From an uncultured Ardenticatenia bacterium (GTDB lineage: Bacteria; Chloroflexota; Anaerolineae; 4572-78; NAK82): a stretch of 64,000 nt of DNA. Every line of letters starts with the position of its first letter. Position 1 is the stretch's first letter. Shown here in pieces: positions 45,537 through 64,000 of this stretch. The notes beneath the pieces are model-generated. The model was not told the origin of the DNA. It saw only the letters and a program-made list of their open reading frames with translations, and ran no database searches. Location: contig CAKZLO010000063.1 in assembly GCA_937127125.1 (NCBI GenBank), forward strand, positions 8,185 to 72,184. Reading direction: 5' to 3'. A program made the translations under genes and the position numbers.

Positions 45537-45551
45537 CTCACTTCGCTCCTT

Positions 45552-47262: not shown

Positions 47263-50022
47263 ATGCGCAGGCACCTTTGGATCCTAACCGCTCTGTTAGT
47301 AGTGCTCTCGATGTTTATGGCGCAGTGTGCGCCAGCGGCACCGACGCCCACTGAGGCACCTAAGGCAACGGAGACTCCTACCGAGGTACCGAAGGCTACG
47401 GAGACCCCTACCGAGGCACCCAAGGCCACAGAAGTCCCTACGGAAGCTCCTGCTGCTGAGACGCCTGAAGCTACCGAAGCTGCCAAGCCGGCAGAGGGCA
47501 AGCTGAAGATCGGCTTGGTGACGGACGTGGGCAAGGTGAACGACGGCACGTTCAACCAGTTTGCTTATGAGGGCTTCACGAAAGCGGCCAAGGAATTCGG
47601 CCTCGAAAGCGCCTTCATCGAGACGCAGCAACCGACCGACTATGAGAAAAATGTTAAGCAGTTCATCGACGAAGGCTATGGGATGATCGTGACCGTCGGC
47701 TTTATGATGGGAGAGACCACCAAGAAGATGGCGGAGGCATACCCTAACGTGAAGTTCGCCATCGTGGACTATGCCTATGACCCGGTCATCCCAAATGTGC
47801 AAGGCCTGGTGTTCCGCGAGGATCAATCCGGCTTTCTGGCTGGGGCACTTGCGGGACAGATGACCAAGAGCAAAGTGGTGGGGATCGTAGCTGGTATGGA
47901 GATCCCTGCGGTCAAGAAATTCCGCAACGGCTACGAAAACGGTGTGGCTTATGTATGCCCTGACTGTAAAGTGATTGGCGTCTACATCGATAGCTTTACC
48001 GACCCAGCGCGAGGTAAGGCGGCGGCTGAAAGCCAGATCGCTGAGGGCGCGGACGTGATCTTCGGCGCAGGCGGACCGACCGGATCGGGTGCTATCCTTG
48101 GTGCTGCACAGCAAGGGATCTGGGTGATCGGTGTTGACCAGGATGAGTACCTGACCACCTTCAAGGGTGGTAAAGAGAAGGGTGCAGACAAGTTGCTGAG
48201 CAGCGCGGGCAAGCGTGTAGATGTGGCTGTCTACAACGCAGTCAAGGCGGCAGCAACGGGCACGTTCAAGGGTGGTACAATGGTTTTCGATGCTGCCTCG
48301 AACGGCATAGGATTAACCCCCTTCCACGACGCAGAGAAAGCCATTCCCGCTGAGGTGAAAGCTAAGCTGGACGAGATCTTCAAGATGATGGCCGAGGGTA
48401 AGCTCGATACGGGTGTCGATCCTGCCACGGGTGACAAAGTCGGTCCAGCCAAGGTTGTGGGTGCGGAAGCAGCATCTGCTGAAGCTCTTCCAGCTGCTGC
48501 CGAAGAGGGTGTCTGGCTGCGTGTGAGCTACGCTTGGCCATGTTACATTGATCCAGCAGTTGGGTCCGACTTCGCTAGCTCGACCGCCTTGGCTAACTTA
48601 TACGACACGCTGGTGTTCCCGAATAAAGAGGGTGGCGTTGATCCGTGGGTAGCCGAGAAGTGGGAGACCTCCTCGGATGGCAAGACTTGGACGTTCACCA
48701 TCAAGAAGGGGATCAAGTTCCACGACGGTACCGAGATGAAGGCCAGCGATGTGGCATACAGTATGAACCGTATGCTCAAAATCGGTGAGGGTTACGCCTA
48801 CCTGTTCACCGACGTCGTTGAGAGCGCTACGGCGAAGGATGACTATACGGTCGAGTTCACACTCAAGCAGCCCACGGGTCTTTTCCTGCCCAGCTTGGCA
48901 CGGCTGTACATCTTGAACGAGAAGCTGGTACGTGCCAACACCAAGAAAGAGGGTCCGTATGGTGAAGAAGGTGATTACGGGAAGGATTATCTTCTGACCC
49001 ACGATGCTGGTTCCGGCTCCTACAAGGTCAAGGAATTCCCGCTTCAAGAATACCTGCTGATGGAGAAGAACAAGGATTGGTGGGGCACCTTTGCGCCCAA
49101 TGCGCCGGACTACTACAAGATGATTGGTACTACAGAAGCTTCCACCATCCGTACCATGATGTCTAACAAGGAGCTTGAGATCACCGATCAGTGGCAGACG
49201 CTCGAGTCCTTCAAAGCTTTGGATGAACTGCCCGGCGTGGATGTTGCGGCGTACCCGAATATGACCAGCTTCTACTTCATGATCAACAATCGGCTGGCGC
49301 CCACCGATGATGTGCACTGTCGCCGTGCCATGGCTTACGCTTTTGACTATGATGCCGCTGTGAAGCTGGAGTGGCCGGGGACCAAGCCAATGGTCGGACC
49401 AGTGAACGCTGCGCTGGGAGGCCATAATCCCAATGTCACAGTGTATCGGCGCGACCTGGACAAGGCAAAAGCAGAGCTAGATCAGTGCAAGTATAAAGGT
49501 GAGCTGGACAAGTATCCGGTGCAGTTCGTCTGGATTTCAGAAGTTCCGGACGAGGAAAAATTCGCGCTGCTCTTCCAAGCCAACATGGCAGAGATTGGTA
49601 TCCCTGTAGAGATCGTCTCCTCGCCTTGGCTCTCTGTGGTGGAAAACACGTCTAAGCAGGAAACCAGTCCCCACATCGTCAGCATCTATGTCTCGTCCGA
49701 TCTGCCCGAGGCGGGTCCTATGCTGAAGCAGCGATACCACTCTAGCTCGGCAGCGACGTGGTCGCAAAATGAGTGGCTGCTTGACAAGGAGCTGGACGCT
49801 GCAATCGATGATGCACTGAGCACATTGGATCAGGCGGAGCGTTTCAAGAAGTATCAAGACATCCAGGCCAAGCTCGCGGATCTGGCTCCTTCTATCTTCG
49901 TGTATGACCAGCTGGAGAAGCATGCCTATCAGGACTACGTCGACTGGCCAGCGGCCAAGGGTGAGGTCATCCCAATGATGGGATACGACCTGCTCGCCTT
50001 CAAGATCGGTGTGAAAAAGTGA
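47263..50022 (+). CDS. Lipoprotein fusion: BMP/PnrA-like binding domain + family-5 (Dpp/Opp) binding domain
   Basis: MAQC lipobox; DGTFNQ, GADVIF and IGVDQD (BMP); LYDTLV, WTFTIKKGIKFHDG and RRAMAYAFD (SBP_5); single open frame. Confidence 0.9.
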   Translation: MRRHLWILTALLVVLSMFMAQCAPAAPTPTEAPKATETPTEVPKATETPTEAPKATEVPTEAPAAETPEATEAAKPAEGKLKIGLVTDVGKVNDGTFNQFAYEGFTKAAKEFGLESAFIETQQPTDYEKNVKQFIDEGYGMIVTVGFMMGETTKKMAEAYPNVKFAIVDYAYDPVIPNVQGLVFREDQSGFLAGALAGQMTKSKVVGIVAGMEIPAVKKFRNGYENGVAYVCPDCKVIGVYIDSFTDPARGKAAAESQIAEGADVIFGAGGPTGSGAILGAAQQGIWVIGVDQDEYLTTFKGGKEKGADKLLSSAGKRVDVAVYNAVKAAATGTFKGGTMVFDAASNGIGLTPFHDAEKAIPAEVKAKLDEIFKMMAEGKLDTGVDPATGDKVGPAKVVGAEAASAEALPAAAEEGVWLRVSYAWPCYIDPAVGSDFASSTALANLYDTLVFPNKEGGVDPWVAEKWETSSDGKTWTFTIKKGIKFHDGTEMKASDVAYSMNRMLKIGEGYAYLFTDVVESATAKDDYTVEFTLKQPTGLFLPSLARLYILNEKLVRANTKKEGPYGEEGDYGKDYLLTHDAGSGSYKVKEFPLQEYLLMEKNKDWWGTFAPNAPDYYKMIGTTEASTIRTMMSNKELEITDQWQTLESFKALDELPGVDVAAYPNMTSFYFMINNRLAPTDDVHCRRAMAYAFDYDAAVKLEWPGTKPMVGPVNAALGGHNPNVTVYRRDLDKAKAELDQCKYKGELDKYPVQFVWISEVPDEEKFALLFQANMAEIGIPVEIVSSPWLSVVENTSKQETSPHIVSIYVSSDLPEAGPMLKQRYHSSSAATWSQNEWLLDKELDAAIDDALSTLDQAERFKKYQDIQAKLADLAPSIFVYDQLEKHAYQDYVDWPAAKGEVIPMMGYDLLAFKIGVKK
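47347..47451 (+). repeat. About 3.5 tandem 30-bp repeats encoding PTE(A/V)PKATE(T/V)
   Basis: cccactgaggcacctaaggcaacggagact / cctaccgaggtaccgaaggctacggagacc / cctaccgaggcacccaaggccacagaagtc. Confidence 0.85.
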
Positions 50023-50045
50023 TGTGAGCTTTTGATGTTCGACTT

Positions 50046-50081
50046 GGTCCCCGAGAGGCCTTAGAATCGCTCTCGGGGACC
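50046..50081 (+). promoter_or_regulatory. Intercistronic hairpin after the binding-protein gene (probable mRNA stabiliser)
   Basis: 12-bp stem GGTCCCCGAGAG/CTCTCGGGGACC with no U tract. Confidence 0.6.
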
Positions 50082-50105
50082 GATCTCGATTGTCAGAGAA
50101 TTGCA

Positions 50106-51134
50106 ATGAGACTGGTCATCTTCATCCTCAAGCGAGCACTGCATTCCATTTTTGTGCTGCTTGGCCTCTCTGTGGTGATCTTTGCCATTTCACGTGTCCT
50201 TCCCGGGGACCCGGCACGCATGGCAGTAGGTGCCAGAGCACCCCAATGGGTCGTGGACAATTTGCGCGCGCAGATGCACCTTGATGAGCCGTTGTATGTT
50301 CAATATGGCTACTGGCTGATCGACGCCTTACAGGGTAAGTTTGGCATTTCCCTGGTCACGCGTCGCGAGGTAGCCGAAGACATCAAGGAGTTCTTCCCGG
50401 CTACCTTCGAGCTGGCTTTGTTTGCCGGGATCTTGATGGGTGGACTTGGTATCCTATTAGGCACCATTTCGGCACGCCACAAGGACAAATGGATAGACAA
50501 CGTTGTGCGTGTCCTTTCTTATCTAGGTGTGGTGACCCCAGCATTCGTATTCGCGATTATATTCATGCTTGTGTTTGGCTACTGGCTAAAGTGGTTGCCT
50601 ACTATTGGTCGTCTCAGCGAGGGTCTGACCCGTCCGCCTGTGATCACCGGACTGATGACCATTGACGCATTGCTGGCTGGTGACCTGGTTGTCTTTTGGG
50701 ATGCTCTGAAGCACATTGTACTGCCGGCTATTGCCCTGGCCATGGGGGGCCTAGCGCAAGAAGCACGCATCACGCGCGCGACGATGTCGGACAATCTCAC
50801 TAAGGACTACATCGCCGCGGAACGAGCGCTGGGTATACCGGAGCGTGTTATCATGGGCAAGTATCTGCTCAAACCCTCGCTCATACCGACGATCTCTATT
50901 CTGGGCCTTGACTTCGCCGGTACACTGAGCAGCGCTTTCCTGGTGGAGCTGATCTTCAACTGGCCAGGCATATCACGCTATGGCATCAATGCCATGTTGC
51001 GTAAGGACTTAAACGCCATCGCAGCTGTGATTCTGGTGCTGGGTGTTGTCTTCATCGTGGTCAACATCATAGTAGATATCGTGGTCGCGTATCTCGACCC
51101 GCGGATTCGTCTCAGTGCTGAAAGGAGCGAGTGA
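50106..51134 (+). CDS. dppB: Dpp/Opp ABC transporter permease B
   Basis: PGDPA, FPATFELA, ELIFNWPG and LDPRIR motifs. Confidence 0.92.
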   Translation: MRLVIFILKRALHSIFVLLGLSVVIFAISRVLPGDPARMAVGARAPQWVVDNLRAQMHLDEPLYVQYGYWLIDALQGKFGISLVTRREVAEDIKEFFPATFELALFAGILMGGLGILLGTISARHKDKWIDNVVRVLSYLGVVTPAFVFAIIFMLVFGYWLKWLPTIGRLSEGLTRPPVITGLMTIDALLAGDLVVFWDALKHIVLPAIALAMGGLAQEARITRATMSDNLTKDYIAAERALGIPERVIMGKYLLKPSLIPTISILGLDFAGTLSSAFLVELIFNWPGISRYGINAMLRKDLNAIAAVILVLGVVFIVVNIIVDIVVAYLDPRIRLSAERSE

Positions 51135-51135
51135 C

Positions 51136-52080
51136 GTGACCAAAGTGATGGGAGACTGGGTATCCGAACTGGGAGGCAGAGCAGAATCGGCTACCTCGAT
51201 AAGTTGGCGGGAGCTGCAACGGCGCAGCCGTCGCGAAAACATCGGCCGCGCTTGGTACAAGTTTTCGCGCAATCCACTATCGGTAGCTGGACTGGCTATC
51301 GTCCTGACAATCGTTTTCCTGGCCATTTTTGCCCCTTACGTAACGCCTTATCCTCATCACGCCGGCCCCTTCACCGATTTCGAAAACGCTAAATTGCCTC
51401 CTAACCTGAAGTACCTCTTTGGTACTGACACGATTGGACGCGACATCCTCACGCGGGTGATCTTTGGTTTCCAGGACGCCCTGCTGATGGGCATTGTGGT
51501 GTTGGCTTTGGTGGTGCCCCCGGGAGTGTTACTCGGTCTGGTGGCTGGCTACTACCAGGGCACGTGGATAGATACAATTATCATGCGCATTACCGATATC
51601 TTCTTGGCGGTGCCGCCGCTTATTCTCGCTTTGGCAATTGCCTCTGTGCTCAAACCTAATCTGATGAACTCGATGATGGCTGTGTCGCTCATGTGGTGGC
51701 CGTGGTACGCGCGGCTGGTCTATGGTCTCACAAGTCAACTGCGTAATGAGTATTTTGTGAAATCAGCGGAGACAATCGGTGCAAGCAAAGCACATATTCT
51801 CTTCCGCGAGATTTTGCCAAACTGCGTCTCTCCCATCTTCACAAAAATGAGTTTGGATATGGGATGGGTCATTCTGATCGGCTCGTCACTTAGCTTCGTT
51901 GGTTTGGGGGTGCAGCCTCCTAAACCGGGGTTGGGCACAATGGTGGCCGATGGCGCGCGCTATCTGCCTGACCAATGGTGGATCCCAGTCTTTCCGGCTT
52001 TGGGCATTGTGGTGATCGTGCTGGGCTTCAATCTCCTGGGCGACGGATTGCGCGATCTACTTGCAGCGGAAGAGGCGTAA
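51136..52080 (+). CDS. dppC: Dpp/Opp ABC transporter permease C
   Basis: FGTDTIGRD, LSFVGLG and FNLLGDGLRD motifs; start approximate. Confidence 0.92.
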   Translation: MTKVMGDWVSELGGRAESATSISWRELQRRSRRENIGRAWYKFSRNPLSVAGLAIVLTIVFLAIFAPYVTPYPHHAGPFTDFENAKLPPNLKYLFGTDTIGRDILTRVIFGFQDALLMGIVVLALVVPPGVLLGLVAGYYQGTWIDTIIMRITDIFLAVPPLILALAIASVLKPNLMNSMMAVSLMWWPWYARLVYGLTSQLRNEYFVKSAETIGASKAHILFREILPNCVSPIFTKMSLDMGWVILIGSSLSFVGLGVQPPKPGLGTMVADGARYLPDQWWIPVFPALGIVVIVLGFNLLGDGLRDLLAAEEA

Positions 52081-52087
52081 TTGCGAA

Positions 52088-53068
52088 ATGAATACTCCTC
52101 CTCTGCTTGAAGTCCGCAATTTGCAAGTGCATTTCAGGGTGTTTGGTGGTTATCTTAAGGTATTAGATGGCGTCAACTTAGTCGTACGCGCCGGCGAAAA
52201 AGTGGGCCTGGTGGGCGAATCGGGCTGTGGTAAAACCACTACGATGAAGGCTATTTTGCGAATACTGCCTGAACCGCCCGCGCAGATCGTAGGAGGCCAC
52301 GTATTGTTCCGCGGGAAAGACGTGTTGAAGATGCGCCCTCAGGAGTTGCGTCGACTACGCGGTCGTGGCATTTCGATGGTTTTTCAAGACCCTACTGCAG
52401 CTTTAAACCCTGTATTCACGATTGGACAACAACTGGGAGATGTTATCCGTTATTCACACAGTGACGGAAGGGTGGACGCTGGACAAATCCGATTAAAGGC
52501 TCTGCAAGCTCTGAAGGAAGTTGCGCTGGCAGATCCTGAGAGGCTGCTGGATAGCTATCCTATTCAACTAAGTGGGGGCATGCGACAGAGAGTCTGTATC
52601 GCAATGGCACTGGCTACGCAACCGGAGTTGTTGATCGCCGATGAGCCAGGCACCTCTCTGGACGTAACCATCCAGGATCAGATCCTGCGGTTGCTGCACA
52701 ATCTAGTAGTGGAGCGCAACACTTCTGTCATTCTTATCACGCATACGCTAGGAGTGGTGCGTGAGGTGACAGACCGGGTATATGTTATGTATGCTGGCAC
52801 CATTGTCGAGTCGGCGCCCACTAAGGTCCTGTTTGCAAATCCAATGTTCCCTTACACACGCGGCCTGATGCAATCGGTGCCCCGCCTTTCGGGTGGCGGA
52901 GTGGCCGAAGGGATACCGGGCCGTATACCCAACTATCTTAATCCACCCACTGGATGTCGTTTTCATCCGCGATGTCCCCACGTTATGGAAGTTTGTAGAC
53001 ATGAGAAACCCCCTGTATTTACGGTGGGCGAGGAGCACTACGTCGCCTGTTATCTCTATGCGTCATAG
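52088..53068 (+). CDS. dppD: Dpp/Opp ABC transporter ATPase D
   Basis: GESGCGKT, LSGGMRQ, ADEP and GCRFHPRC motifs. Confidence 0.93.
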   Translation: MNTPPLLEVRNLQVHFRVFGGYLKVLDGVNLVVRAGEKVGLVGESGCGKTTTMKAILRILPEPPAQIVGGHVLFRGKDVLKMRPQELRRLRGRGISMVFQDPTAALNPVFTIGQQLGDVIRYSHSDGRVDAGQIRLKALQALKEVALADPERLLDSYPIQLSGGMRQRVCIAMALATQPELLIADEPGTSLDVTIQDQILRLLHNLVVERNTSVILITHTLGVVREVTDRVYVMYAGTIVESAPTKVLFANPMFPYTRGLMQSVPRLSGGGVAEGIPGRIPNYLNPPTGCRFHPRCPHVMEVCRHEKPPVFTVGEEHYVACYLYAS

Positions 53069-53089
53069 CACTGTGAGGTCGCGCAGCGG

Positions 53090-54091
53090 ATGACCCCTAT
53101 TCTAGAATATAAGAACCTCAAGAAGTACTTCACCGTCGGACATCGTGGCTTGCTAAGACGCGAGCCAATCACGGTCAAGGCCGTGGACGGTGTGTCGTTC
53201 GTGATCAATAAGGGTGAAGTGTTTGGTCTGGTAGGCGAGTCTGGCTCAGGCAAAAGCACAGTCGCATATACAACTATTGGAATGTACCGACCCACTTCAG
53301 GGGCGATCGAGTTTCAGGGAGAGAGTCTCTTCACTAAAGAAGGCAAGCGCCCTCGACACATCAAGAAGGAAATCCAAATTGTCTTCCAGGACCCAGGCTC
53401 GTCTCTGAATCCGCGCCGGAGCGTGAAAGAAATTCTGGAACTGCCGCTCAGCATCCATCAGCCGGCCAAGAAGCACATTGGGCGTGTTGCCGAGCTATTG
53501 GAGATGGTAGAGCTTCCAGTAGATTATATGTACAAGTACCCTCACGCACTGAGCGGAGGCGAGAAACAGATTGTGGCGATCGCCCGAGCGTTGGCAACCG
53601 AGCCTTCTTTCATTATTCTCGACGAGCCTACTTCTGCTCTGGATGTCTCTATCCAGGGAAAGATTATCAACCTGTTATTGCGTTTGAGGCAGGAGTTCCA
53701 CCTCTCGTATTTGTTCATAACACACGACTTGAGCCTAATGCGCAATGTCGCCTCGCGTGTCGCGATCATGTATCTGGGCAAGATCTGCGAAGTCGCGGAG
53801 GCAAGTGAGTTCTTTCGTAACCCCAAGCATCCTTACACGCAGATGCTATTGTCTTCCATCCCTGTGGTTTCGGAGGAGGAAGAGAAGCTCAAGCCAAAGC
53901 GTGTACAATCGCGTGGCGAGATACCCAGCCCGGTTAATATTCCCAGCGGATGCAGCTTTCACTTGCGCTGTCCGTACAAGATGGATATTTGTCCACGCGT
54001 TGACCCAGAGATGGTGGACACTGGTGAAGGACATTACGTGCGTTGTCATCTGTACCCAGTTCAGGAAAACAGCAGACCTGTTGCAGTGTAG
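53090..54091 (+). CDS. dppF: Dpp/Opp ABC transporter ATPase F
   Basis: GESGSGKS, LSGGEKQ, LDEP and GCSFHLRC motifs. Confidence 0.93.
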   Translation: MTPILEYKNLKKYFTVGHRGLLRREPITVKAVDGVSFVINKGEVFGLVGESGSGKSTVAYTTIGMYRPTSGAIEFQGESLFTKEGKRPRHIKKEIQIVFQDPGSSLNPRRSVKEILELPLSIHQPAKKHIGRVAELLEMVELPVDYMYKYPHALSGGEKQIVAIARALATEPSFIILDEPTSALDVSIQGKIINLLLRLRQEFHLSYLFITHDLSLMRNVASRVAIMYLGKICEVAEASEFFRNPKHPYTQMLLSSIPVVSEEEEKLKPKRVQSRGEIPSPVNIPSGCSFHLRCPYKMDICPRVDPEMVDTGEGHYVRCHLYPVQENSRPVAV

Positions 54092-54135: not shown

Positions 54136-56187
54136 ATGAGAGTAGCCACCGACATTGGGGGCACCTTCACTGATTTGGTGTATCTAGATGAGCAAACCGG
54201 GCAGATCGGCGTGGCCAAGGCATCTACCACGCCAGCTAACTTTGCGCAGGGGGTGATTGACACGCTGCACAAAGCGGCCATTAGGGTGCCTGACACAACT
54301 TTCTTCGTACATGGTTCCACGGTAATTATCAACGCATTAACGGAGCGCAAGGGAGCCAAGACAGCTTTGATCACTACCCGAGGATTTCGCGACGTCTTGG
54401 AAATCACCCGTGCCAACCGCCCCGACCTATACAATATGTATTATACCAAGCCGAAGCCGTTTGTGCCGCGTTATCTCCGCCTAGAGGTCCGCGAGCGGAT
54501 GAACTACAAGGGCGAGGTCTTGGAACCTCTGCACGAGGAGGATGTACGCCGAGCGGCTGAGCTCTGTCGCAAAGAAAAAGTAGAAGCAATTGCTGTCTGC
54601 TTCTTGCATTCGTACGCCAATCCGGCCCATGAAATTCGCTGTGGTGAGATTCTGCGCGAAATGGTCCCGGAAATCCCGGTGACACTTTCCCATGAGATCA
54701 CCCAGGAATGGCGCGAATATGAGCGTACCAACACAGCAGTACTGAACAGCTATGTGATGCCTGTTGCCAAGTTCTATCTAGCGAATCTGGAGAGGAACCT
54801 GGCCGACCTGGGAATGGGCAAAGTGTATCATATTATGCAATCCAACGGTGGCACAGCGACTTTCGATATGGGCAAGCGTGTGCCGATCAACACGGTCGAA
54901 TCAGGTCCTGTGGCAGGCGTGATTGGGGCAGCCGTGATCGGCAATTTGATTGGCGAACGCAATGTGATTTCCCTCGACGTGGGTGGGACGACAGCAAAGA
55001 CATCGCTGGTCGAAAATGGCACACCACGCATCACCACCGAATACAGGATCGAGTGGCGTCGTGACTACGCGGGTTATCCTATCCTGGCTCCGACGGTTGA
55101 CATTGTCGAGATCGGCGCCGGGGGTGGTTCTATCGCCTGGGTGGATAACGCTGGTGCCCTAAAGGTAGGACCAGTGAGTGCCGGTGCTGACCCGGGACCA
55201 GCGTGTTATGGGCGTGGCGGTGACAAACCCACCGTGACGGATGCCAACGTCCTGGCAGGTCGCATCAACCCGGAGTATTTCTTGGGCGGTGAAATTCGCC
55301 TTGACGTGGAAAACGCCCGACGCGCTATGAAACCCATTGCCGACCATTTCAAGGTGAACGTGGAAGAAGCTGCGATGGGTGTGATTCGATTGGCCGACGC
55401 TAATATGATAAACGCGCTCAAGCTGGTATCAGTGCGGCGAGGTTATGATCCTCGCGACTTCGTGTTAATTGCCTTTGGCGGCGGGGGTGCTATGCACGCG
55501 GGTGCGCTGGCGCGGGAGCTGCGTGTCAAGGAGGTGCTCGTTCCGAACGAGCCAGCTGTCTTTTCCGCTTGGGGAATGCTGATGACCGACCTACGGCAAG
55601 ATTTCATCCGCACGCGTATCCAGCGCGCCGACCAGATTTCCAGCTCAGCCCTTACTGAGATCTATCAGGAAATGGAGGCGGTAGCGCGGCAAAACCTGCT
55701 CGATCAGCACATACCGGAAGAACGCATGATGTTCCAACGCTTTGCTGACATGCGTTACCTGGGCCAAGAGCATACAGTAAAGGTACCCATTCCGGGGGGA
55801 ATCATCACCGAAGAACAGATGCCCGAGATCTGTGAACGCTTCCACCGGCTGCATGAGCACACCTATACATTCCGCCTGGACACCCTGATCGAATTTGTTA
55901 ACTATCACGTAACCGGTTTCGGAGTTGTGGAGAAGCCCCAGCTCAAGAAGCTGGATGGAGCTCGGGGCAGCTTGGAGGCAGCACGCAAAGGAACACGACG
56001 TGTCAACTTCGATGAGCTGGGATACCACGACGCACCCATTTATGAGCGCAGTCTCTTGCCGGTCGGGGTCTCTATCGCGGGTCCTCTGGTTATTGAGGAA
56101 CCAGCGTCCACTACAGTGGTGTTCCCAGATCAGACGGTATACCGTGACGAATACGGGTTCTTGCGCATCCACACCACGCGCGACTGA
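54136..56187 (+). CDS. hyuA: Hydantoinase/oxoprolinase A (ATPase) subunit
   Basis: DIGGTFTD, SGPVAG, DVGGTT, GAGGGS, SAGADPGP and FGGGG motifs. Confidence 0.93.
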   Translation: MRVATDIGGTFTDLVYLDEQTGQIGVAKASTTPANFAQGVIDTLHKAAIRVPDTTFFVHGSTVIINALTERKGAKTALITTRGFRDVLEITRANRPDLYNMYYTKPKPFVPRYLRLEVRERMNYKGEVLEPLHEEDVRRAAELCRKEKVEAIAVCFLHSYANPAHEIRCGEILREMVPEIPVTLSHEITQEWREYERTNTAVLNSYVMPVAKFYLANLERNLADLGMGKVYHIMQSNGGTATFDMGKRVPINTVESGPVAGVIGAAVIGNLIGERNVISLDVGGTTAKTSLVENGTPRITTEYRIEWRRDYAGYPILAPTVDIVEIGAGGGSIAWVDNAGALKVGPVSAGADPGPACYGRGGDKPTVTDANVLAGRINPEYFLGGEIRLDVENARRAMKPIADHFKVNVEEAAMGVIRLADANMINALKLVSVRRGYDPRDFVLIAFGGGGAMHAGALARELRVKEVLVPNEPAVFSAWGMLMTDLRQDFIRTRIQRADQISSSALTEIYQEMEAVARQNLLDQHIPEERMMFQRFADMRYLGQEHTVKVPIPGGIITEEQMPEICERFHRLHEHTYTFRLDTLIEFVNYHVTGFGVVEKPQLKKLDGARGSLEAARKGTRRVNFDELGYHDAPIYERSLLPVGVSIAGPLVIEEPASTTVVFPDQTVYRDEYGFLRIHTTRD

Positions 56188-56216: not shown

Positions 56217-57965
56217 ATGGCACGCAATGGGAATGGGGTTGACCCTTTCACCCTCGAGATCATCAGCGAAAGCTTGCGCGCAATCGGCGACGAGATGTTC
56301 GTCACAATGCAGCGCACGAGTATGAGCGTTATCATCTATGAGACGCTCGACTATGCGACCGGCCTGACCGATGCCCAGGGGCGACTCATCACTCAGGGCA
56401 ATGGGGTCACGCTTTTCCTCGGCACGCTTGACTATGGTGTGCGCAGCGTGCTGGAAAAGTTCGGCTATGATGGGCTAAAACCGGGCGATATCGTGATCAC
56501 GAACGATCCTTACGGCGGCGGAGGAACCCACCTCTCCGATGTATCGTTGATCATGCCCATCTTCTACGACGGCAAAATTGTCGCCTTCGCTGCCAACAAG
56601 GGACACTGGACAGAGGTCGGTGGAATGGCAGCGGGTAGCTGGACCACTGATTCCACCGAAATCTATCAGGAAGGCCTGCAATTCCCAGTCATCAAGATAT
56701 TTGAGGAAGGCAAGATCAACCAAGGCTTGGTGGAACTCATCCGAGCGAACGTGCGTACGCCGGACATGAGCATTGGCGATATGATGGCTCAGGCGGCATC
56801 ATTGCGCATCGCTGAGCGACGTTTCCGCGAACTATGCGACAAATACGGCGTCGAAACGGTTACGGCGGGTGTTGAGAAATTGATGAACGACAGTGAAACG
56901 CTGATCCGCCAGGAGCTGCGCAAGATCCCGCCAGGTGTGTATGAAGCGGAAGATTACATTGACGACGACGGAATCTCGGAAGGGCCATTCAAGGTTCAGG
57001 TAAAAGTTACCGTCACACCGGATAAGCTCATCTGCGACTACACCGGCAGCCATCCTCAAGTGTTGGGACCGGTAAACGCTGGATGGACAGCCCTCGTCGC
57101 TGCTGCGCGCGCCATTTTCCTCGCGCTGACGGATCCATCCATCCCTACCAACGATGGGTGTTTCCGACCGTTGGAGATCATTTGCCCCCCGCGAACTATC
57201 TTCACGGCTGAACGGCCTGCCGCAGTATCCACTTACTGGGAGACGATGTTGTACGCGGCAGACCTGATATGGAAGGCGATGGCACCCGTGTTGCCACACC
57301 GCTTGCCTGCAGGACATTTTCTCAGTGTATGTGCTCCTATCATCGCGGGTTTGCATCCTGACACGGGTTCGCTGTTCATCCTTGTTGAGCCGAGCGCAGG
57401 CGGTTGGGGTGCCGGATCAACCAAAGACGGCGAGAACGGGATGTTCTGTGTGGGCGATGGGGAGACCTACAATGTCCCCGTGGAAGTATGTGAGCAACGT
57501 TACGGGGTGCTGGTCGAGCAATACGCTTACGACATTACAGAAGGCGGCGCCGGCAAATTCCGTGGTGGGCGTGGTATGGTGCGCGATTATCGTATTCTGG
57601 CCGACAGCGCGCAGCATACAGGTACCTTCGGACGCTTTAAGTTCCTGCCGTGGGGTATGGCTGGTGGTAGCCCCGGTTCTCGCAACTACATGAAGATCAT
57701 CTGGGCAGACGGACGCGAGCCGTTGGTGGTGGGCAAAATCGCACGACTACCCGTGAAGAAAGGGGATCTTGTGCGTCTCGTGACCGGCACCGGCGGAGGC
57801 TATGGTGACCCTTGTGAGCGCCCGGTGGAGAAAGTGGTCGAGGATGTCCGGGATGGCTATATCACCCCCGAAATGGCACGTGATCAATACGGTGTGGTGG
57901 TTGACCCGGAGACGTTGCAGGTGCTGGAGCTGGTGGGCAAACGCGCACAAAAACGGGCAGGGTAA
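56217..57965 (+). CDS. hyuB: Hydantoinase/oxoprolinase B subunit (1 of 3)
   Basis: ETLDY, NDPYGGGGTHLSD, HWTEVGG, YQEGL and GGGYGDP motifs. Confidence 0.93.
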   Translation: MARNGNGVDPFTLEIISESLRAIGDEMFVTMQRTSMSVIIYETLDYATGLTDAQGRLITQGNGVTLFLGTLDYGVRSVLEKFGYDGLKPGDIVITNDPYGGGGTHLSDVSLIMPIFYDGKIVAFAANKGHWTEVGGMAAGSWTTDSTEIYQEGLQFPVIKIFEEGKINQGLVELIRANVRTPDMSIGDMMAQAASLRIAERRFRELCDKYGVETVTAGVEKLMNDSETLIRQELRKIPPGVYEAEDYIDDDGISEGPFKVQVKVTVTPDKLICDYTGSHPQVLGPVNAGWTALVAAARAIFLALTDPSIPTNDGCFRPLEIICPPRTIFTAERPAAVSTYWETMLYAADLIWKAMAPVLPHRLPAGHFLSVCAPIIAGLHPDTGSLFILVEPSAGGWGAGSTKDGENGMFCVGDGETYNVPVEVCEQRYGVLVEQYAYDITEGGAGKFRGGRGMVRDYRILADSAQHTGTFGRFKFLPWGMAGGSPGSRNYMKIIWADGREPLVVGKIARLPVKKGDLVRLVTGTGGGYGDPCERPVEKVVEDVRDGYITPEMARDQYGVVVDPETLQVLELVGKRAQKRAG

Positions 57966-58017: not shown

Positions 58018-59799
58018 GTGCCAACTCCCATGCGGTGTGATCCCTTCACGGCCGAGATCATAGCGGAAGCATTCCGTGCTTCCGCCGAAGAGATGTTCCT
58101 CACTCTCAAACGCACAAGCCAAAGCCCCATCATTTACGAAGTGCTCGACTGTGCCTGTGGACTGACAACGCCTGAAGGCCACCTGGTGGCTGAAGCGGAG
58201 GGTATCCCGGGTTTCATTGGGTGTTTGAGCTTCGGGGTGCGCTCGATCCTGCGCAAGTTCGGCCCAGCCCATATATGCCCTGGTGACATCTTCATCACCA
58301 ACGACCCTTATGAAGGGGGAGGAACCCATCTCTCCGATGTCACGCTGGTAGCTCCTGTGTTCTACGACGAAGAGCTGGTTGCCTTCGTTGCCAACAAGGC
58401 GCATTGGACCGAGATGGGAGGGATGGCAGCAGGCAGCTGGACCACCGACGCGACTGAGATCTTTCAGGAGGGTCTGCAGCTACCCGGACTCAGGATCTTT
58501 CACCGAGGACAGCCCGACCGAGCTCTGCTTGACCTCATTGAAGCCAACGTACGCCTCCCCACTATGACCTTGGGCGACTTATACGCGTGTGCAGCCTCCC
58601 TAAGGGTGGGTGAAACAAGCTTCGTCGAAATATGCCGTAAGTATGGGGTGCAGGCGGTGCGGGACGCAATGCAAAGCATCCTAGCACGCGGCCGCAGAAC
58701 AGCATGGGCGTGTGTGCAACAGATACCCTATGGTAGCTACTACGCTGAAGACTGGATTGATGACGATGGCATAGGCGAGCAACCCTTGCACGTTTGCGTG
58801 CGTGTTGTCGTTGACGAACAAGGTTTCACCGCTGATTTCACCGGTGCACCGCCTCAGACGATTGGCCCCATCAACACGACAAGGGTGGGATTGGAAGTCT
58901 CGTGCCGCGAGATCTTCAAAGCAATCGTGGCACCGCACGAACCAAATAATGAGGGTTTGTTCGATCCACTGCGGGTTGTCTGTCCAGATGGCACCATTTT
59001 CACTGCTCGGCGTCCAGCTCCCGTTTCGATATACTGGGAAACAGGTGCTTACGCAAGCGAGCTGATCTGGCGTGCACTCTACCCGGTGGCGAGTGACCGA
59101 TTGCCGGTGGGCCACTCCTTGAGTGTTTGCGGCACAATTCTCAGCGGCATCGATGGCGAGAGAGGACCATTTGTGTTAGTTGAGCCTCAGGCAGGGGGAT
59201 GGGGAGCGACCTGCAATCGCGATGGTGAATCCGGACTGGTAGTCGCAGGCGATGGCGAGACGTATGTGATGCCAGTCGAAGTATGCGAACAACGTTATCC
59301 GGTATTGGTGGAACAGTATCGCTTTAACACTGGGCCGGCGGGAGCCGGTCAATTCCGGGGTGGCTTTGGTCTTGTGCGCGACTATCGCATTCTATGTGCA
59401 CGCGCCGAGCTGACCGCCACGTTTGGCCGCCATCGCTTCCCTCCATGGGGGTACGCAGGTGGTGCAAGTGGGTCGCCCAATACAATCGAAATCTACTATG
59501 ATAGTGACAGCGTGGATGTGGGCAAACCGACGTTGCGCGCTGGCAAGCTGGCACGTTGTCCGTTACGGCGCCACGACTTAGTACGTTTGATCACTGGCGT
59601 GGGTGGCGGTTACGGTGACCCATTGACGCGAGATGTGCAGCGTGTCTGGGAAGATGTCCGCAACGAGTTCCTCCGACCCGAGGAGGCAGCGAGCGTTTAC
59701 GGCGTGGTATTGACTCCAGATGGGAGCGCAGTAGACCTTGCAGCGACCACAGCGCTGCGTGAGGCGCGTCGTCAATCTCATGGCCAGAGGTACCCATGA
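58018..59799 (+). CDS. hyuB: Hydantoinase/oxoprolinase B subunit (2 of 3)
   Basis: EVLDC, NDPYEGGGTHLSD, HWTEMGG and GGGYGDP motifs; start 58018 or 58030. Confidence 0.92.
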   Translation: MPTPMRCDPFTAEIIAEAFRASAEEMFLTLKRTSQSPIIYEVLDCACGLTTPEGHLVAEAEGIPGFIGCLSFGVRSILRKFGPAHICPGDIFITNDPYEGGGTHLSDVTLVAPVFYDEELVAFVANKAHWTEMGGMAAGSWTTDATEIFQEGLQLPGLRIFHRGQPDRALLDLIEANVRLPTMTLGDLYACAASLRVGETSFVEICRKYGVQAVRDAMQSILARGRRTAWACVQQIPYGSYYAEDWIDDDGIGEQPLHVCVRVVVDEQGFTADFTGAPPQTIGPINTTRVGLEVSCREIFKAIVAPHEPNNEGLFDPLRVVCPDGTIFTARRPAPVSIYWETGAYASELIWRALYPVASDRLPVGHSLSVCGTILSGIDGERGPFVLVEPQAGGWGATCNRDGESGLVVAGDGETYVMPVEVCEQRYPVLVEQYRFNTGPAGAGQFRGGFGLVRDYRILCARAELTATFGRHRFPPWGYAGGASGSPNTIEIYYDSDSVDVGKPTLRAGKLARCPLRRHDLVRLITGVGGGYGDPLTRDVQRVWEDVRNEFLRPEEAASVYGVVLTPDGSAVDLAATTALREARRQSHGQRYP

Positions 59800-61487
59800 C
59801 AAACTCGAGGTCACAACCGGACCCGTTCACCGTCGAGATCATCCGTGAGCAGCTCATCGCGGCAGCCGAGGAGAGCTTTGTGGTACTCGGTCGTACCAGC
59901 CAAAGCCCCATCATCTATGAGGTGTTGGACTATGCCTGTGCCATTACAGACCACAATGGTGACTTGATTGCGCAAGCGAACGGGGTGCCAGGCTTCCTGG
60001 GCACGCTCTCGTTCGCGGTCAAAGCCGTTCTGCAGAAGTTCGGTTCAAATGCGATGCACCCCGGGGATGTCTTTATCACGAACGATCCCTATCAAGGTGG
60101 TGGAAACCATCTTTCCGACGTGGCATTGATCGCACCCATCTTCTGCCAGAACCGGTTGATCGCCTTCAGCGTGAACAAGGCACATTGGACTGAGGTAGGC
60201 GGCATGGCCGCCGGCAGCTGGACGACTGACAGCCGCGAGATCTTCCAAGAAGGTCTGCAGTTTCCGGCCATCCATCTCTTTCGGGAAGGTAAGCCAGAAC
60301 AGGGATTGCTTGAGCTGATCGCGGCGAACGTGCGCACGCCTGAGCGCACTCTGGGTGATCTGTATGCTGGGGTGGCTGCTCTCAGAAGTGCAGAACGTCG
60401 CATCGGAGAAATGTGTCACCGCTACGGCGCAGACGTGCTAGGCGCGAGTATGGCAGCTATCCTGGATCACGGCGAGAAGCTGGCGCGACAAGCTCTAGCC
60501 AGACTGCCCAAAGGCTCTTTCTTCGCTGAAGATTGGATGGATGATGACGGATTGTCAGACGAGCCAGTATATGTTTGCGCGAGAGTAACGATCACGGATG
60601 ACGCTTTTGTCGCCGATTTCACCGGTTCGGCGCCCCAGGTGTCTGGTCCCATTAATTGCACACGCACGCGACTGCATTCCGCTTGTCGCACCATCTTCAA
60701 GGCGATCACGGATCCAAAATCACCGGTCAACGAAGGGTGGTTCCGTCCGCTGCAGGTAGTGTGTCCCGAGGGCACCGTCTTCACAGCGCGCCGCCCAGCA
60801 CCCGTGTCCACGTACTGGGAGACAGGCGCTTATGCTGTCGACCTCCTCTGGCACGCTCTTTTCCCGGTGCTGCCCGATCGGCTGACAGCAGGTCATTCGC
60901 TGAGCGTCTGCGGCACTGTGATCAGCGGTCGTGACGAGAATGGCGACTATTTCATCTTGGTCGAGCCGCAGGCAGGCGGCTGGGGAGCCGGAGCAACCAA
61001 GGATGGTGAGAGCGGTCTAGTGGTCGTCGGTGACGGCGAGACATACGTGATGCCAGTCGAAGTGTGTGAAACGCGCTACCCTTTGTTGGTAGAGCAATTC
61101 ACGTTTAATGTACAGCCAGCCGGCGCCGGAATGTATCGTGGGGGATTTGGGCTGATACGTGACTATCGGCTGCTCTCGGCCTCTGCACAGCTTACCACCA
61201 CCTTTGGCCGGCACAAATATGCACCATGGGGAGCGGCGGGCGGTCAACCGGGTTCGCCAAATGGAGTGGCGATCATCCCTGCAGGCGCAAGCGAGCCCAT
61301 CTTGTGGAAGGGTAAGCTCGCTCGTTATCCTCTGAGACGAGGCGATGTTGTGCGCCTGGTAACCGGTGTGGGCGGTGGCTACGGTGACCCACGGCGACGT
61401 GATCCTGACGCAGTGCGAGAGGATGTGCGCAATGGCTTTCTGACAGCCGATCAAGCTCGTATGATATATGGCGTCGTAGTACACTGA
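59796..61487 (+). CDS. hyuB: Hydantoinase/oxoprolinase B subunit (3 of 3)
   Basis: EVLDY, NDPYQGGGNHLSD, HWTEVGG and GGGYGDP motifs; ATGA overlap with the previous gene. Confidence 0.92.
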   Translation: MTNSRSQPDPFTVEIIREQLIAAAEESFVVLGRTSQSPIIYEVLDYACAITDHNGDLIAQANGVPGFLGTLSFAVKAVLQKFGSNAMHPGDVFITNDPYQGGGNHLSDVALIAPIFCQNRLIAFSVNKAHWTEVGGMAAGSWTTDSREIFQEGLQFPAIHLFREGKPEQGLLELIAANVRTPERTLGDLYAGVAALRSAERRIGEMCHRYGADVLGASMAAILDHGEKLARQALARLPKGSFFAEDWMDDDGLSDEPVYVCARVTITDDAFVADFTGSAPQVSGPINCTRTRLHSACRTIFKAITDPKSPVNEGWFRPLQVVCPEGTVFTARRPAPVSTYWETGAYAVDLLWHALFPVLPDRLTAGHSLSVCGTVISGRDENGDYFILVEPQAGGWGAGATKDGESGLVVVGDGETYVMPVEVCETRYPLLVEQFTFNVQPAGAGMYRGGFGLIRDYRLLSASAQLTTTFGRHKYAPWGAAGGQPGSPNGVAIIPAGASEPILWKGKLARYPLRRGDVVRLVTGVGGGYGDPRRRDPDAVREDVRNGFLTADQARMIYGVVVH

Positions 61488-61596: not shown

Positions 61597-62694
61597 ATGA
61601 ACGAGCTCGAACAGCGAATGAACATCCTGCGTGCCGCAATGGCCAACGCTGATGTAGACATAGTCGCGATTGCCCCCAGTGATATGATGCGCTACCTGGC
61701 AGGGTATGCCTCCTACCCGGACGAGCGAGTTTGCATGCTGCTGGTCTCACAACACACAGCCGCTGCGGTCGTGCCAGCCCTCAACGCTGGGGAATGGCGT
61801 GCGCATACCAATCTGCCATTGCATATCTGGGCGGATAACGAGGGTCCACAAACAGCCCTGTCCGCTGCTCTGTCAGCCCTCGATGTTTCCCGCATACGAC
61901 GGCTAGCCGTAGACGGCGAGATGCGCGCCGATTTCTTGCTCCCTTTGCTGAAAGCGGCAGGCAATCCAGAAGTCATCACTCTTGCAGGTTTGGGTGCTCC
62001 ACTGAGGTTGTGTAAATCCTCCACCGAGATCGAGTTGTTGCAGGCCGCGGCGGCACAGGCTGACCGTGCTATGCAAGCTGCCATCGAAGCGTGCCGTCCA
62101 GGTGTCACCGAAGCACAGGTTGCTTGGGCAGCCGAGCAAGCATTCCGAATGAATGGGGCAGACTACGTCTGTTTCACACTGGTCGCGTCCGGACCGAATA
62201 GCGCTTTTCCTCATCATCGTAGCGGACAACGTGTGCTGCAGCTCGGTGATGCGATCATCATTGACATTGGTGCCTCGCTCAACCACTACAAATCGGACAT
62301 TACGCGCGTAGTACATCTGGGGGAACCGTCGCCGGAGTTCCTAAAAGCGTACGAGGCCGTCTTGCGAGCTAACGAAGCCGCTCGTGCTGTCGTCCGACCC
62401 GGGGTGTCCGCGGCAACGGTTGATCGGGCCGCGCGCACAGTGCTGGAAACAGCTGGCTATGGCGAGTACTTTGTTCACCGTACCGGGCACGGCCTGGGGC
62501 TGAGCACCCATGAGCCGCCTTGGATCATGGCTGGCAATGAGCAACCGCTAGAAGAGGGGATGGTGTTCAGCATCGAGCCGGGCGTGTATCTGCCCGGTCA
62601 GTTCGGCATACGCATTGAGGACATCGTAGTGGTCACCGCTTCGGGTGCCCGCGTTCTAACTGGTTTCGATCATCAGCTGACCGTCAAACGCTAG
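61597..62694 (+). CDS. pepQ: Xaa-Pro dipeptidase/aminopeptidase (M24B)
   Basis: All metal ligands present: IDIG, SDITR, GHGLG..HE, IEPG, RIED. Confidence 0.88.
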
Positions 62695-62749
62695 TCATCC
62701 ACGTCATCAATATGTCGTTGTACTTCTCTTAGACCAAGGAGTGCATAAA

Positions 62750-63091
62750 ATGGTCAAACTCACCGTTATGTATAACCTGCCCCCGGGTGCAGATCACGAG
62801 GCATTCCTGCGCTGGCGTACCACAGAGCATCAGCAGGATAATCTGGCCATCCCGGGTCTTCTTAAGACTGATTTCTATGTGATTCATGAAGCTTGGGAGC
62901 AGCCGACACCCCCTTACCGCTACATGACCGAGGCATATTTCCCGGACATGGAGACCCTGCGCGCCTTCTTCTTTGCACCGGACTATCAGGCGAAGTTGCG
63001 CGAGTGGCTGAAGATGATCGCCGATCCCGTGTTTCTCATCTCCGAGGAAGTGATAACATCCGTCGTGCAAGAAGTAGAAGGGAAACAATGA
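62750..63091 (+). CDS. EthD-like dimeric alpha/beta barrel protein
   Basis: MVKLTVMY..P..D...F...H...IPGL...E.YF.D pattern; AAGGAG RBS. Confidence 0.7.
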   Translation: MVKLTVMYNLPPGADHEAFLRWRTTEHQQDNLAIPGLLKTDFYVIHEAWEQPTPPYRYMTEAYFPDMETLRAFFFAPDYQAKLREWLKMIADPVFLISEEVITSVVQEVEGKQ

Positions 63092-64000
63092 ACGTATTGC
63101 GTCATCTCTTTATCGCGCTATCACAAAGCGCTCGGGCACGCCAGTTGGTGATGCAATATGGTCCAATGCGCCGGCTGGCGCGCCGTTTTATCGCCGGCGA
63201 GACGATCGACGAAGCGATTGCTGTAGTCAGAGAGCTGAATCAGGGTGGCATCCTGGCAACGTTGGATCACCTCGGAGAGAACGTCAGCAGTCAGGAGGAC
63301 GCCGAACGAGCGGCCCAAGAGTACCGAGAGCTGGCACATCGCATCGCAGAGGAGGCTCTGCAATCTTCTATCTCGGTCAAACCAACGCATGTGGGACTCG
63401 ATTTCGGCGAAGATTTCTGTTACAGTCAGCTGCGCACAGTTGTGGACACAGCGCGCGATCTGAACCTGACCGTCGAAGTAGATATGGAAGGCTCGACCTA
63501 TACACAAGCGACACTTAATGTCTTTCACCGACTGTTGGATGCGTACAGTAATCTACGCGTTGCCTTGCAAGCTTATCTCTATCGCACCGAGAAAGATCTC
63601 GAGCGACTGATCGAGCGAGGCAGCAGTGTGCGTCTGTGCAAGGGCGCCTATGATGAGCCTTCCAGCATTGCATGGCGCAACAAGGTGGACGTGGACGCCA
63701 GCTATGCGCGCCTGATGCACATGATGTTAAGCGATCAAGCACTTCAGAATGGTTTCTATCCCGCGCTAGCCACCCATGATCACAACCTGATCCTACAGGT
63801 GGAGCGTGAAGCAGCTAGGCGGGAGATGGATAGGAGGCGTTTCGAGTTCCAAATGCTGTACGGTGTACGGCGTGACTGGCAGCAACGCCTTGCCAACGAC
63901 GGGTACCGCGTGCGCATCTATGTGCCGTATGGGACGCAATGGTATCCCTACTTTATGCGACGGCTGGCAGAGCGTCCGGCGAATGTATTGTTCATCACCC
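63088..64000 (+). CDS. putB: Monofunctional proline dehydrogenase (3'-truncated by the window edge)
   Basis: Not in the ORF track; translated by hand: RFIAGE, LGE, DMEGS, LQAYLYRT, RLCKGAY, ATHD, FQMLYG, YVPYG, YFMRRLAERPAN. Confidence 0.93.
   Translation, partial: MNVLRHLFIALSQSARARQLVMQYGPMRRLARRFIAGETIDEAIAVVRELNQGGILATLDHLGENVSSQEDAERAAQEYRELAHRIAEEALQSSISVKPTHVGLDFGEDFCYSQLRTVVDTARDLNLTVEVDMEGSTYTQATLNVFHRLLDAYSNLRVALQAYLYRTEKDLERLIERGSSVRLCKGAYDEPSSIAWRNKVDVDASYARLMHMMLSDQALQNGFYPALATHDHNLILQVEREAARREMDRRRFEFQMLYGVRRDWQQRLANDGYRVRIYVPYGTQWYPYFMRRLAERPANVLFIT

Follow-up and report, generated by a model that had tools for sequence, protein, structure and literature searches.

The stretch of DNA considered here (the window, 64,000 nucleotides (nt) in length) covers positions 8185-72184 of contig C63 in a 3.7-Mb draft genome, 95% complete, of an uncultured Ardenticatenia bacterium. 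Its distal part carries an operon-like array built around HyuA and HyuB, the two subunits of an ATP-dependent cyclic-amide hydrolase. The host is evidently a member of the Chloroflexota, since the nearest related loci, with a 94%-identical HyuA, belong to metagenome-assembled genomes of Anaerolineae or Ardenticatenia. An archaeal origin, hinted at by a PepQ_Arch match and the Rad50 zinc hook noted below, was considered and rejected in view of these relatives, a sigma-70-like promoter site, a Shine-Dalgarno sequence and a lipobox. Gene calls were taken from a listing of open reading frames (ORFs) combined with Pfam and NCBIfam profile scans. Both agree with a first-pass annotation of this DNA, which had described twelve co-oriented and tightly spaced genes: all twelve lie on the plus strand (47263-64000), with intergenic distances of -20 to +109 nt.

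The array begins with a lipoprotein substrate-binding protein (SBP; 47263-50022). Its 919-aa product has a signal sequence ending in AQC, a linker rich in Pro, Thr, Glu and Ala, a Bmp/PnrA-like domain (PF02608, residues 86-361), a second linker and an SBP_bac_5 domain of the dipeptide/nickel/opine type (PF00496, residues 459-829). Two permeases follow, of the DppB/OppB type (50106-51134; PF00528 and PF19300) and the DppC/OppC type (51115-52080; PF00528 and PF12911), and then two ATPases, of the DppD type (52061-53068) and the DppF type (53090-54091), each combining PF00005 with the oligo_HPY tail PF08352. Together, these form a complete Dpp/Opp-type ATP-binding cassette (ABC) importer, with SBP_bac_5, two BPD_transp_1 permeases and two oligo_HPY ATPases. 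This is the dipeptide-type importer that had been proposed, although the fusion within its binding protein had been overlooked. The fused frame recurs in four independently assembled relatives (L003, L004, L006 and L065; L-numbers label the related loci of the comparison set), and distant relatives have the SBP_bac_5 part alone. The two domains were combined in two clusters among the 120 protein-database matches listed. Among the same matches, Bmp domains 50-70% identical to this one were joined to binding proteins of PF00532, PF00497, PF13416, PF04392 and PF09084, and the source names, where given, were Anaerolineae or Chloroflexaceae. Because similar Bmp domains are fused to several other families of binding protein, the Bmp part (47263-48462) looks like a portable add-on that does not point to a substrate. 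Among solved structures, 7x0r, 'Lbp', is its best match (217 bits). The SBP reached no NCBIfam equivalog, the best being NikA (130 bits, cut-off 393).

Behind the importer lie the genes for HyuA, the ATP-binding alpha subunit (54136-56187; PF05378, PF01968 and PF19278), and for three metal-dependent beta subunits. These are HyuB1 (56217-57965), which belongs to the main orthologue clade, and its paralogues HyuB2 (58018-59799) and HyuB3 (59796-61487), the start of the last overlapping the hyuB2 stop by 4 nt. HyuA scores 186, 331 and 59 bits against Hydant_A_N, Hydantoinase_A and Hydant_A_C, and the three HyuB proteins score 593, 534 and 588 bits over the entire Hydantoinase_B profile. Along its full length, HyuA can be aligned both to a fused enzyme deposited under the name N-methylhydantoinase (468 bits) and to CapA, the alpha subunit of caprolactamase (384 bits); the best solved relative of HyuB1 is likewise a deposited N-methylhydantoinase (304 bits).

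The ATP-dependent caprolactamase CapAB of Pseudomonas jessenii (PDB 6YRA), an enzyme that requires bicarbonate, shares the two-subunit make-up and the same Pfam domains, and its catalytic residues are kept. In an alignment to 6yra_A, HyuA residues D6, T10, D281 and T285 correspond to the CapA ATP-site residues D11, T15, D295 and T299, of which the acidic D11 and D295 are named in the available part of PMC8453981. The metal tetrad D45/H105/D108/H130 is invariant in HyuB1, HyuB2 and HyuB3, and it matches D41, H99, D102 and H124, the residues through which CapB binds its metal and at which mutants are inactive; the activated lactim is thought to pass from CapA to CapB through a tunnel (PMC8453981, available part). 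With these residues conserved, the enzyme would be expected to open a stable lactam at the expense of ATP, and the first-pass call of an ATP-dependent cyclic-amide hydrolase with one A and three B subunits is borne out by the domains, the ATP-site residues and the metal tetrads alike.

However, the resemblance to CapAB has limits. Unlike CapAB, with its 1:1 composition, and the (alpha-beta)2 complex expected of the family, the window pairs one HyuA gene with three divergent HyuB genes, which are 53-61% identical to one another (HyuB2 and HyuB1 53%). Both subunits fall far below the cut-off of 1000 bits for the caprolactamase equivalogs NF050156 and NF050157, with HyuA at 572 bits and HyuB1, HyuB2 and HyuB3 at 284, 219 and 253 bits. 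HyuA has Glu255 and Lys288 where CapA has Asn269 and Asp302. The HyuB pocket appears polar and aromatic where that of CapB is hydrophobic: all three HyuB have E42 for CapB L38, W142 for Y136 and W341 for T336, and the equivalents of CapB I62/M339/I368 are L66/M344/P374 in HyuB1 and G/G/T in both HyuB2 and HyuB3, a mapping made by hand against a 4-angstrom structure and indicative only.

The next gene encodes an M24B metallopeptidase of the prolidase/PepQ-like kind (61597-62694; Creatinase_N and Peptidase_M24). Alignments to 4ege and 1wn1 show the full set of five metal ligands, in the motifs iiDiG, sDitR, HGlG, sIEPG and riED, which upholds the "intact" in its earlier description as an intact Xaa-Pro peptidase. 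The specificity in that name is less secure, as the best NCBIfam model, PepQ (NF040821), is matched at 216.5 bits, below its cut-off of 630. The Creatinase_N domain, together with the resemblance of HyuAB to a deposited N-methylhydantoinase, might also suggest a pathway for creatinine or N-methylhydantoin and creatine, in which an N-methylhydantoinase works beside a creatinase-like M24 protein. This is very improbable. Creatinase is not known to carry these metal ligands, whereas this protein keeps all five; it scores 54.7 bits against the creatinase 1chm and 238 bits against the dipeptidase PepE; and domain scans of the operon found no creatinine deaminase, carbamoylsarcosine amidase or sarcosine oxidase.

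The array continues with an EthD-like small alpha+beta barrel protein (62751-63091; PF07110 at 27.6 bits, cut-off 22; TIGR02118 at 28.2 bits, below its cut-off of 30.5) and a monofunctional proline dehydrogenase (PRODH; 63088-64000). PRODH runs 20 nt past the window to a stop at C63:72204. It matches PF01619 at 138 bits, above the Pfam cut-off, and ProDh_Thermus (NF045947) at 286 bits, below the cut-off of 500. Both genes had been recognised in the first pass, but their starts needed correction: the most likely ones are the ATG at 62751, with AAGGAG upstream, and the ATG at 63088, in an ATGA overlap with the EthD stop. Peptidase and dehydrogenase together recall the pairing of prolidase/PepQ with PutA/PutB, having an M24B protein whose dinuclear site is intact and a monofunctional PRODH nearest to the Thermus type. 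They differ from it in that both fall below the equivalog cut-offs, that they are embedded in a lactamase operon, and that a dehydrogenase for 1-pyrroline-5-carboxylate (P5C) is unlinked. The contig continues on the plus strand with genes assigned by Pfam to a pirin (C63:72270-73253) and a zinc-dependent alcohol dehydrogenase (Zn-ADH; C63:73254-74285), after which the genes switch to the minus strand. A sequence scan of the interval between PRODH and pirin found neither a promoter-like nor a terminator-like site. The earlier treatment of the gene set as one unit had its composition right, but missed these two members beyond the window end.

A single consensus promoter had also been claimed for the array. 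A sigma-70-like site, TTGACA-17-TATAGT, does lie on the plus strand at 47058-47086, inside the sole sizeable upstream intergenic space; it matches the consensus at 11 of 12 positions and is the best between 46500 and 64000. However, the region-wide scan was not enriched, with 14 sites against 10.0 +/- 3.4 in shuffles, and the putative promoter assignment rests on the position and score of the site, not on statistics. The leader of about 175 nt that would follow matches no Rfam family, and a riboswitch there was rejected on that ground and for its unremarkable fold (z -0.20). Between the SBP and first permease genes lies a strong plus-strand stem-loop (50020-50108; -41.9 kcal/mol, z -5.09), as stable as which only 1 of 200 shuffles folds. 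It has no U tract, and may act in transcript stabilisation or attenuation, tuning the ratio of SBP to membrane components.

Divergence from the related locus L004 shows how the genes from hyuA onwards are conserved. Nonsynonymous divergence (dN) is 0.006 for hyuB1, 0.035 for hyuA, 0.092 for hyuB3, 0.119 for hyuB2, 0.131 for M24 and 0.132 for PRODH, and synonymous sites are saturated (dS 1.2-2.9); EthD was left out, its alignment being short, partial and unreliable. Because low dN stands beside saturated dS, all of these genes are maintained by purifying selection. HyuB1 is constrained 15-20 times more than its paralogues in this lineage: at 85% nucleotide identity and a dS of 1.2, the protein is 99% identical to that of L004, an extreme constraint seen on one paralogue only. 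A recombination mosaic behind the contrast between 99% for HyuB1 and 75-85% downstream was considered and rejected. As the operon shows about 74-85% nucleotide identity from end to end, with dS saturated everywhere, the contrast is attributed to differing constraint.

The wider distribution of the module was followed in a comparison set of 80 related loci. In their alignment, Glu255 and Lys288 occur in every HyuA at least 47% identical to that of the window, and in one at 43%. In more distant HyuA paralogues, Leu or Met replaces the Glu and Asp replaces the Lys, except for one in L026 that combines Glu with Asp. The pair lies near the proposed phosphorylation site. HyuA of this Glu/Lys type is present in 75 of the loci, spanning Chloroflexota with Thermomicrobiota, Spirochaetota, Bacillota, Bacteroidota and Pseudomonadota, and the neighbourhood counts below cover these 75. 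Gammaproteobacterial loci with an M19 dipeptidase (L077-L080 and L082), whose HyuA is without the pair and 41-42% identical, were excluded from the counts.

A FastTree phylogeny of 97 HyuB sequences, with local Shimodaira-Hasegawa (SH)-like support only, places HyuB1 within the main clade, which partners HyuA across all these phyla. HyuB2 and HyuB3 form sister clades; the B2 type is restricted to Anaerolineae loci, and the group of both to Anaerolineae and Spirochaetota. The B3 type is the sole HyuB beside HyuA in L024, L027 and L029, and a sister member of the B2/B3 group takes this place in L023. Three HyuB genes per HyuA are present in the window, L004, L005, L008 and L041, two in L007, L009, L012 and L072, and more in L026.

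Most loci consist of a transporter, HyuA and HyuB only. In Anaerolineae the conserved core is SBP_bac_5, two permeases, two ATPases, HyuA and HyuB. Across the 75 loci, an importer with an SBP_bac_5-type binding protein (SBP5) is found in 24, a small cupin in 16, an EthD gene in 8 and any dipeptidase-like gene in 19 (M24 in 15, an amidohydrolase in 3, M19 in 1). Any gene of proline or hydroxyproline catabolism is found in 10, and PRODH in 5. These counts are lower bounds, since many contigs are short, and they do not represent independent events, the loci being related to one another. Pirin is missing from L004 and L041. Synteny of a prolidase and a proline dehydrogenase with the hyu genes, which had been suggested as a check, is therefore present in several lineages but confined to a minority, namely 13 of the 54 loci with at least 6 kb past hyuA for M24, and 5 of 75 for PRODH.

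The commonest neighbour of the clade is a gene of the Asp/Glu/hydantoin racemase family (PF01177), present in 25 of 75 loci and in 23 of the 54 longer ones. It lies between hyuB1 and hyuB2 in L005, L008, L012 and L026, and after hyuB in Flavobacteriaceae, Salinicoccus and L072. The pseudomonadotal L072 repeats the layout of the window, with an XRE-cupin regulator, an SBP5 ABC importer, a 161-aa protein, HyuA, HyuB, racemase, M24 and a further HyuB. In Salinicoccus loci, an OPT oligopeptide transporter stands in place of the ABC importer. There (L060-L064, about 13600-20900), hyuAB is followed by IclR, DUF1177, DUF917 (S-Me-THD-like), AroM, M24, racemase and OPT genes, a mostly uncharacterised set that is conserved in cultured strains and open to experiment. 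Other cultured organisms with HyuA of this clade are Flagellimonas, Tenacibaculum and Heyndrickxia shackletonii.

The frequency of the racemase gives some standing to classical utilisation of 5-substituted hydantoins or a related ureide, in which HyuAB would release an N-carbamoyl amino acid and the M24 protein would take the role of carbamoylase. Pseudomonas sp. NS671 reportedly combines such an enzyme with a racemase in its hyuA/hyuB/hyuC/hyuE genes, and relatives such as L008 and L072 resemble that system, having HyuAB, a hydantoin-racemase-family gene and a downstream hydrolase. The N-methylhydantoinase label on the best solved relatives points the same way, as do the NCS1 permeases (15 of 75 loci) and the pairs of DUF917 and short-HyuA genes that adjoin the clade in Flavobacteriaceae and Salinicoccus. 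However, the window departs from the NS671 arrangement: it has neither racemase nor M20-type carbamoylase, its downstream hydrolase is an M24B peptidase, and it adds a peptide-type ABC importer and PRODH. Pfam and NCBIfam scans found no carbamoylase-type domain in the operon, and no carbamoylase of the M20 or CN-hydrolase type was seen among the scanned neighbours, a scan that left out many singleton ORFs. Natural 5-substituted hydantoins are rare, the M24 protein has a complete dinuclear metal site of the peptidase type, and the explanation leaves both the Dpp-type or OPT transporters and the proline and hydroxyproline links without a reason. It is thus considered unlikely.

Two further lines of evidence tie the module to dipeptides and to proline. 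First, nine hyu-linked M24 rows, from Chloroflexota (the window among them), Spirochaetota, Pseudomonadota and Clostridia, group in one clade (SH-like support 95, FastTree), which excludes the six other M24 matches of the source genome. The M24 proteins of Salinicoccus fall on a separate branch, and the tree leaves out that of L004.

Second, genes of proline or hydroxyproline catabolism adjoin the module in four lineages. PRODH follows M24 and EthD in the window, L004, L005 and L041, and directly follows hyuB in the Thermomicrobiales loci L043 and L047 (PF01619, 125 bits); a DHDPS-family gene is near the module in L044 and L047. In a third lineage, L025, HyuA and HyuB are followed by a proline-racemase-family gene, a second SBP5, an amidohydrolase, DAO-family and DHDPS-family genes, a 95-aa ORF and a soxA-like gene. 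The best model for the amidohydrolase is the Caulobacter-type Xaa-Pro dipeptidase (251 bits, below the cut-off of 500), and the set presumably resembles the Lhp hydroxyproline genes. In the fourth, the Spirochaetaceae loci L027 and L029, co-oriented genes encode a radical-SAM HypD activase, the glycyl-radical trans-4-hydroxy-L-proline dehydratase HypD (NF043068, 1264 bits, above 1100), HyuA, HyuB, a GntR regulator and an L-glutamate gamma-semialdehyde (P5C) dehydrogenase (TIGR01236, 798 bits, above 613.6). Adjacent to this set, and divergent from it, lie an SBP5 ABC importer and a gene of the proline-racemase family. After the P5C dehydrogenase (16302-21829 in these loci) come a 764-aa protein combining the domains Pyr_redox_2, Fer4_20 and FlpD, and a protein with a CCG domain; the two suggest a module for electron transfer linked to the metabolism of hydroxyproline or proline. 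Altogether, three non-homologous proline or hydroxyproline routes appear to have been attached to the module in four lineages, each recruited independently.

These observations bear on a simpler explanation, that HyuAB is a housekeeping or salvage 5-oxoprolinase, or another small-lactam enzyme, with M24, EthD, PRODH, pirin and ADH as unrelated passengers. The genome has one hyuA, three hyuB and one PRODH, all within the operon (tblastn), and no PxpA (PF03746) was found in it; the HyuAB pair may therefore be its 5-oxoprolinase. The downstream part of the operon also varies among relatives, as the absence of pirin from two of them illustrates. By contrast, a passenger role is difficult to reconcile with a dedicated SBP5 importer conserved with the module, three divergent HyuB all under selection, an M24 clade of its own across four phyla and the independent recruitment of proline and hydroxyproline genes in four lineages. 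The caprolactamase equivalog cut-offs, moreover, were not reached. This explanation is therefore held to be quite unlikely.

The sequence comparison thus establishes the module as conserved across phyla, with links in several lineages to the cleavage of dipeptides and the use of proline or hydroxyproline. Its substrate in the window is a more tentative matter. It is quite possible, though short of probable, that the operon serves the catabolism of an imported 2,5-diketopiperazine containing proline or hydroxyproline, with cyclo(Xaa-Pro) the most likely. The Dpp-type importer would take up the ring, and HyuA would use ATP to activate its sole N-H-bearing amide as the lactim. One of three alternative HyuB subunits would then hydrolyse the activated ring at its metal site to linear Xaa-Pro, the prolidase-like M24B enzyme would cleave this dipeptide, and PRODH would oxidise the released proline to P5C. 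A candidate P5C dehydrogenase elsewhere in the genome, on contig C8, has glutamate semialdehyde dehydrogenase models as its best matches (409 bits, below the cut-off of 648). Three HyuB with different pockets sharing one HyuA would widen the range of substrates, and in relatives the racemase would restore epimerised rings to a usable configuration. Its presence in a third of the loci fits a ring with an acidic C-alpha proton, as in diketopiperazines.

The argument for this order of events is chemical. On our reading of the mechanisms proposed in the available part of PMC8453981, the family activates its lactam through the lactim tautomer, which requires an N-H. Only the Pro-CO-NH-Xaa amide of cyclo(Xaa-Pro) carries one, so that opening would yield Xaa-Pro and never Pro-Xaa. 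Since Xaa-Pro, alone among dipeptides, calls for a prolidase, the importer, HyuAB, the dedicated M24 clade and the breakdown of proline or hydroxyproline would all fall into one scheme. What the sequences show directly is the gene content, the catalytic residues, the purifying selection and the conserved neighbourhoods; which ring is degraded, in what order the steps run, whether three HyuB share a single HyuA and the lactim argument itself are what we infer from them. The first-pass annotation had arrived at the same logic of import, ring opening, dipeptide cleavage and proline oxidation from the window; the adjacency of M24 in four phyla and the three proline or hydroxyproline routes in four lineages now strengthen it, while the steps stay conditional.

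Several points weigh against cyclo(Xaa-Pro). To our knowledge, there is no biochemical precedent for diketopiperazines as HyuAB substrates, and the apparent lack of PxpA leaves the 5-oxoprolinase role described above as a competing use of the same enzyme. The operon itself is without a P5C dehydrogenase, and co-transcription of its genes is only predicted. No racemase was found in the window, in L004 or L041, nor by tblastn in the whole 95%-complete source genome. M24 and the proline or hydroxyproline genes are lacking in most loci of the clade, the latter being confined to the four independent lineages. Orthologues in Bacteroidota and Bacillota occur with NCS1 permeases, small cupins and pairs of DUF917 and short-HyuA genes, neighbours that would fit hydantoin-like or nucleobase-like rings at least as well. 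Lastly, and tentatively, in a low-identity alignment an Asp of SBP5 coincides with DppA Asp408, which we take to be the ligand of a free alpha-amino group, and a Phe stands at the position of DppA Arg355.

The same Asp can be counted in favour of another substrate, pGlu-Pro or pGlu-Hyp (pGlu, pyroglutamyl; Hyp, hydroxyproline), in which HyuAB would be a peptide-accepting 5-oxoprolinase releasing Glu-Pro for cleavage by M24 and oxidation by PRODH. The gene logic would be the same as for a diketopiperazine, and HyuAB lies within the oxoprolinase family. The clade-specific Lys288 of HyuA, replacing an Asp conserved in CapA, could pair with a substrate carboxylate. pGlu-Pro also resists pyroglutamyl peptidase I and, being N-blocked, prolidase too. 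However, the racemase of 25 of the 75 loci has no obvious role for pGlu peptides, the NCS1 permeases of other phyla do not point to peptides, and we know of no HyuAB enzyme that takes peptide-bound pGlu. A pyroglutamyl peptide is accordingly an unlikely substrate.

Import of a lactam by a peptide-type transporter beside a HyuAB-like enzyme is not without parallel. Octopine-type Ti plasmids are said to carry agaFG genes for the delactamisation of agropinic acid with an Opp-like AgaDBCA transporter; this system likewise joins an SBP_bac_5-type ABC importer to a HyuAB-like enzyme that presumably opens a lactam of the pyroglutamate type. It differs from the window in its substrate, reportedly a mannityl opine, and in having no known M24 or PRODH, and the AgaA structure 6HLX is only a distant relative of the SBP (80.6 bits). 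The kind of system, an ATP-dependent lactamase with importer and downstream hydrolase, is thus already known, while this composition appears to be new. The first-pass annotation had known of no described pathway with it, and this stands: a full-text literature search, whose coverage leaves out most subscription journals, found no such pathway, no gene for the opening of a diketopiperazine ring and no paper in which 'diketopiperazine' and 'oxoprolinase' occur together. Nor did a hydantoinase occur in any of the 15 papers listed, out of 28 matching, in a full-text search on gene clusters with hydroxyproline, prolidase and HypD.

Other genes around the operon are of interest in their own right. 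Upstream lie a divergent minus-strand pair (44652-46922) encoding an NfeD-type membrane protease (456 aa) and an SPFH/stomatin protein (294 aa), and a 493-aa fusion of an NmrA/NAD(P)-binding domain with DUF2867 (42924-44405). Downstream, a convergent minus-strand group (C63:74321-78585) comprises a 156-aa ORF with no Pfam match, a BPD_transp_2 permease, an ABC ATPase and a 423-aa protein whose sole match is C-terminal and URO-D-like. BPD_transp_2 permeases are the usual partners of Bmp-family binding proteins, which makes this one curious in view of the Bmp domain fused to the Dpp-type SBP. Further on (C63:78797-82906) are a Mre11-like phosphoesterase and a 911-aa SMC/Rad50-like ATPase with a match to the Rad50 zinc hook.

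Diketopiperazines are among the commonest and most stable small peptides arising from microbes, heat and protein decay. The available part of Perzborn et al. 2013 (PMC3852281) calls diketopiperazine-hydrolysing enzymes unknown, and reports the degradation of diketopiperazines by some of the strains that break down hydantoins or dihydropyrimidines. HyuA and HyuB genes, in turn, are abundant and largely unexplained. For instance, hyuA and hyuB (COG0145 and COG0146) were enriched in symbionts in a sponge-microbiome study, without a clear role in the part of that report available (PMC5649159). It would be a bolder and doubtful step to see in this operon the first genetically defined route for 2,5-diketopiperazines, with an ATP-driven 'diketopiperazinase' whose one kinase-like HyuA works with three interchangeable, range-setting metal-hydrolase HyuB, and in the Glu255/Lys288 clade the natural function of many 'hydantoinase' genes. 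If lactim chemistry does force the release of Xaa-Pro, it would account for a prolidase clade devoted to the module, and for proline and hydroxyproline genes having been recruited more than once. The operon and its relatives offer a concrete set of proteins (SBP, HyuA, three HyuB and M24) and a short list of candidate substrates. One alpha subunit serving three beta subunits, if true, would be a new way for an ATP-dependent lactamase to broaden its range, and would be relevant to the biocatalytic opening of stable lactams.

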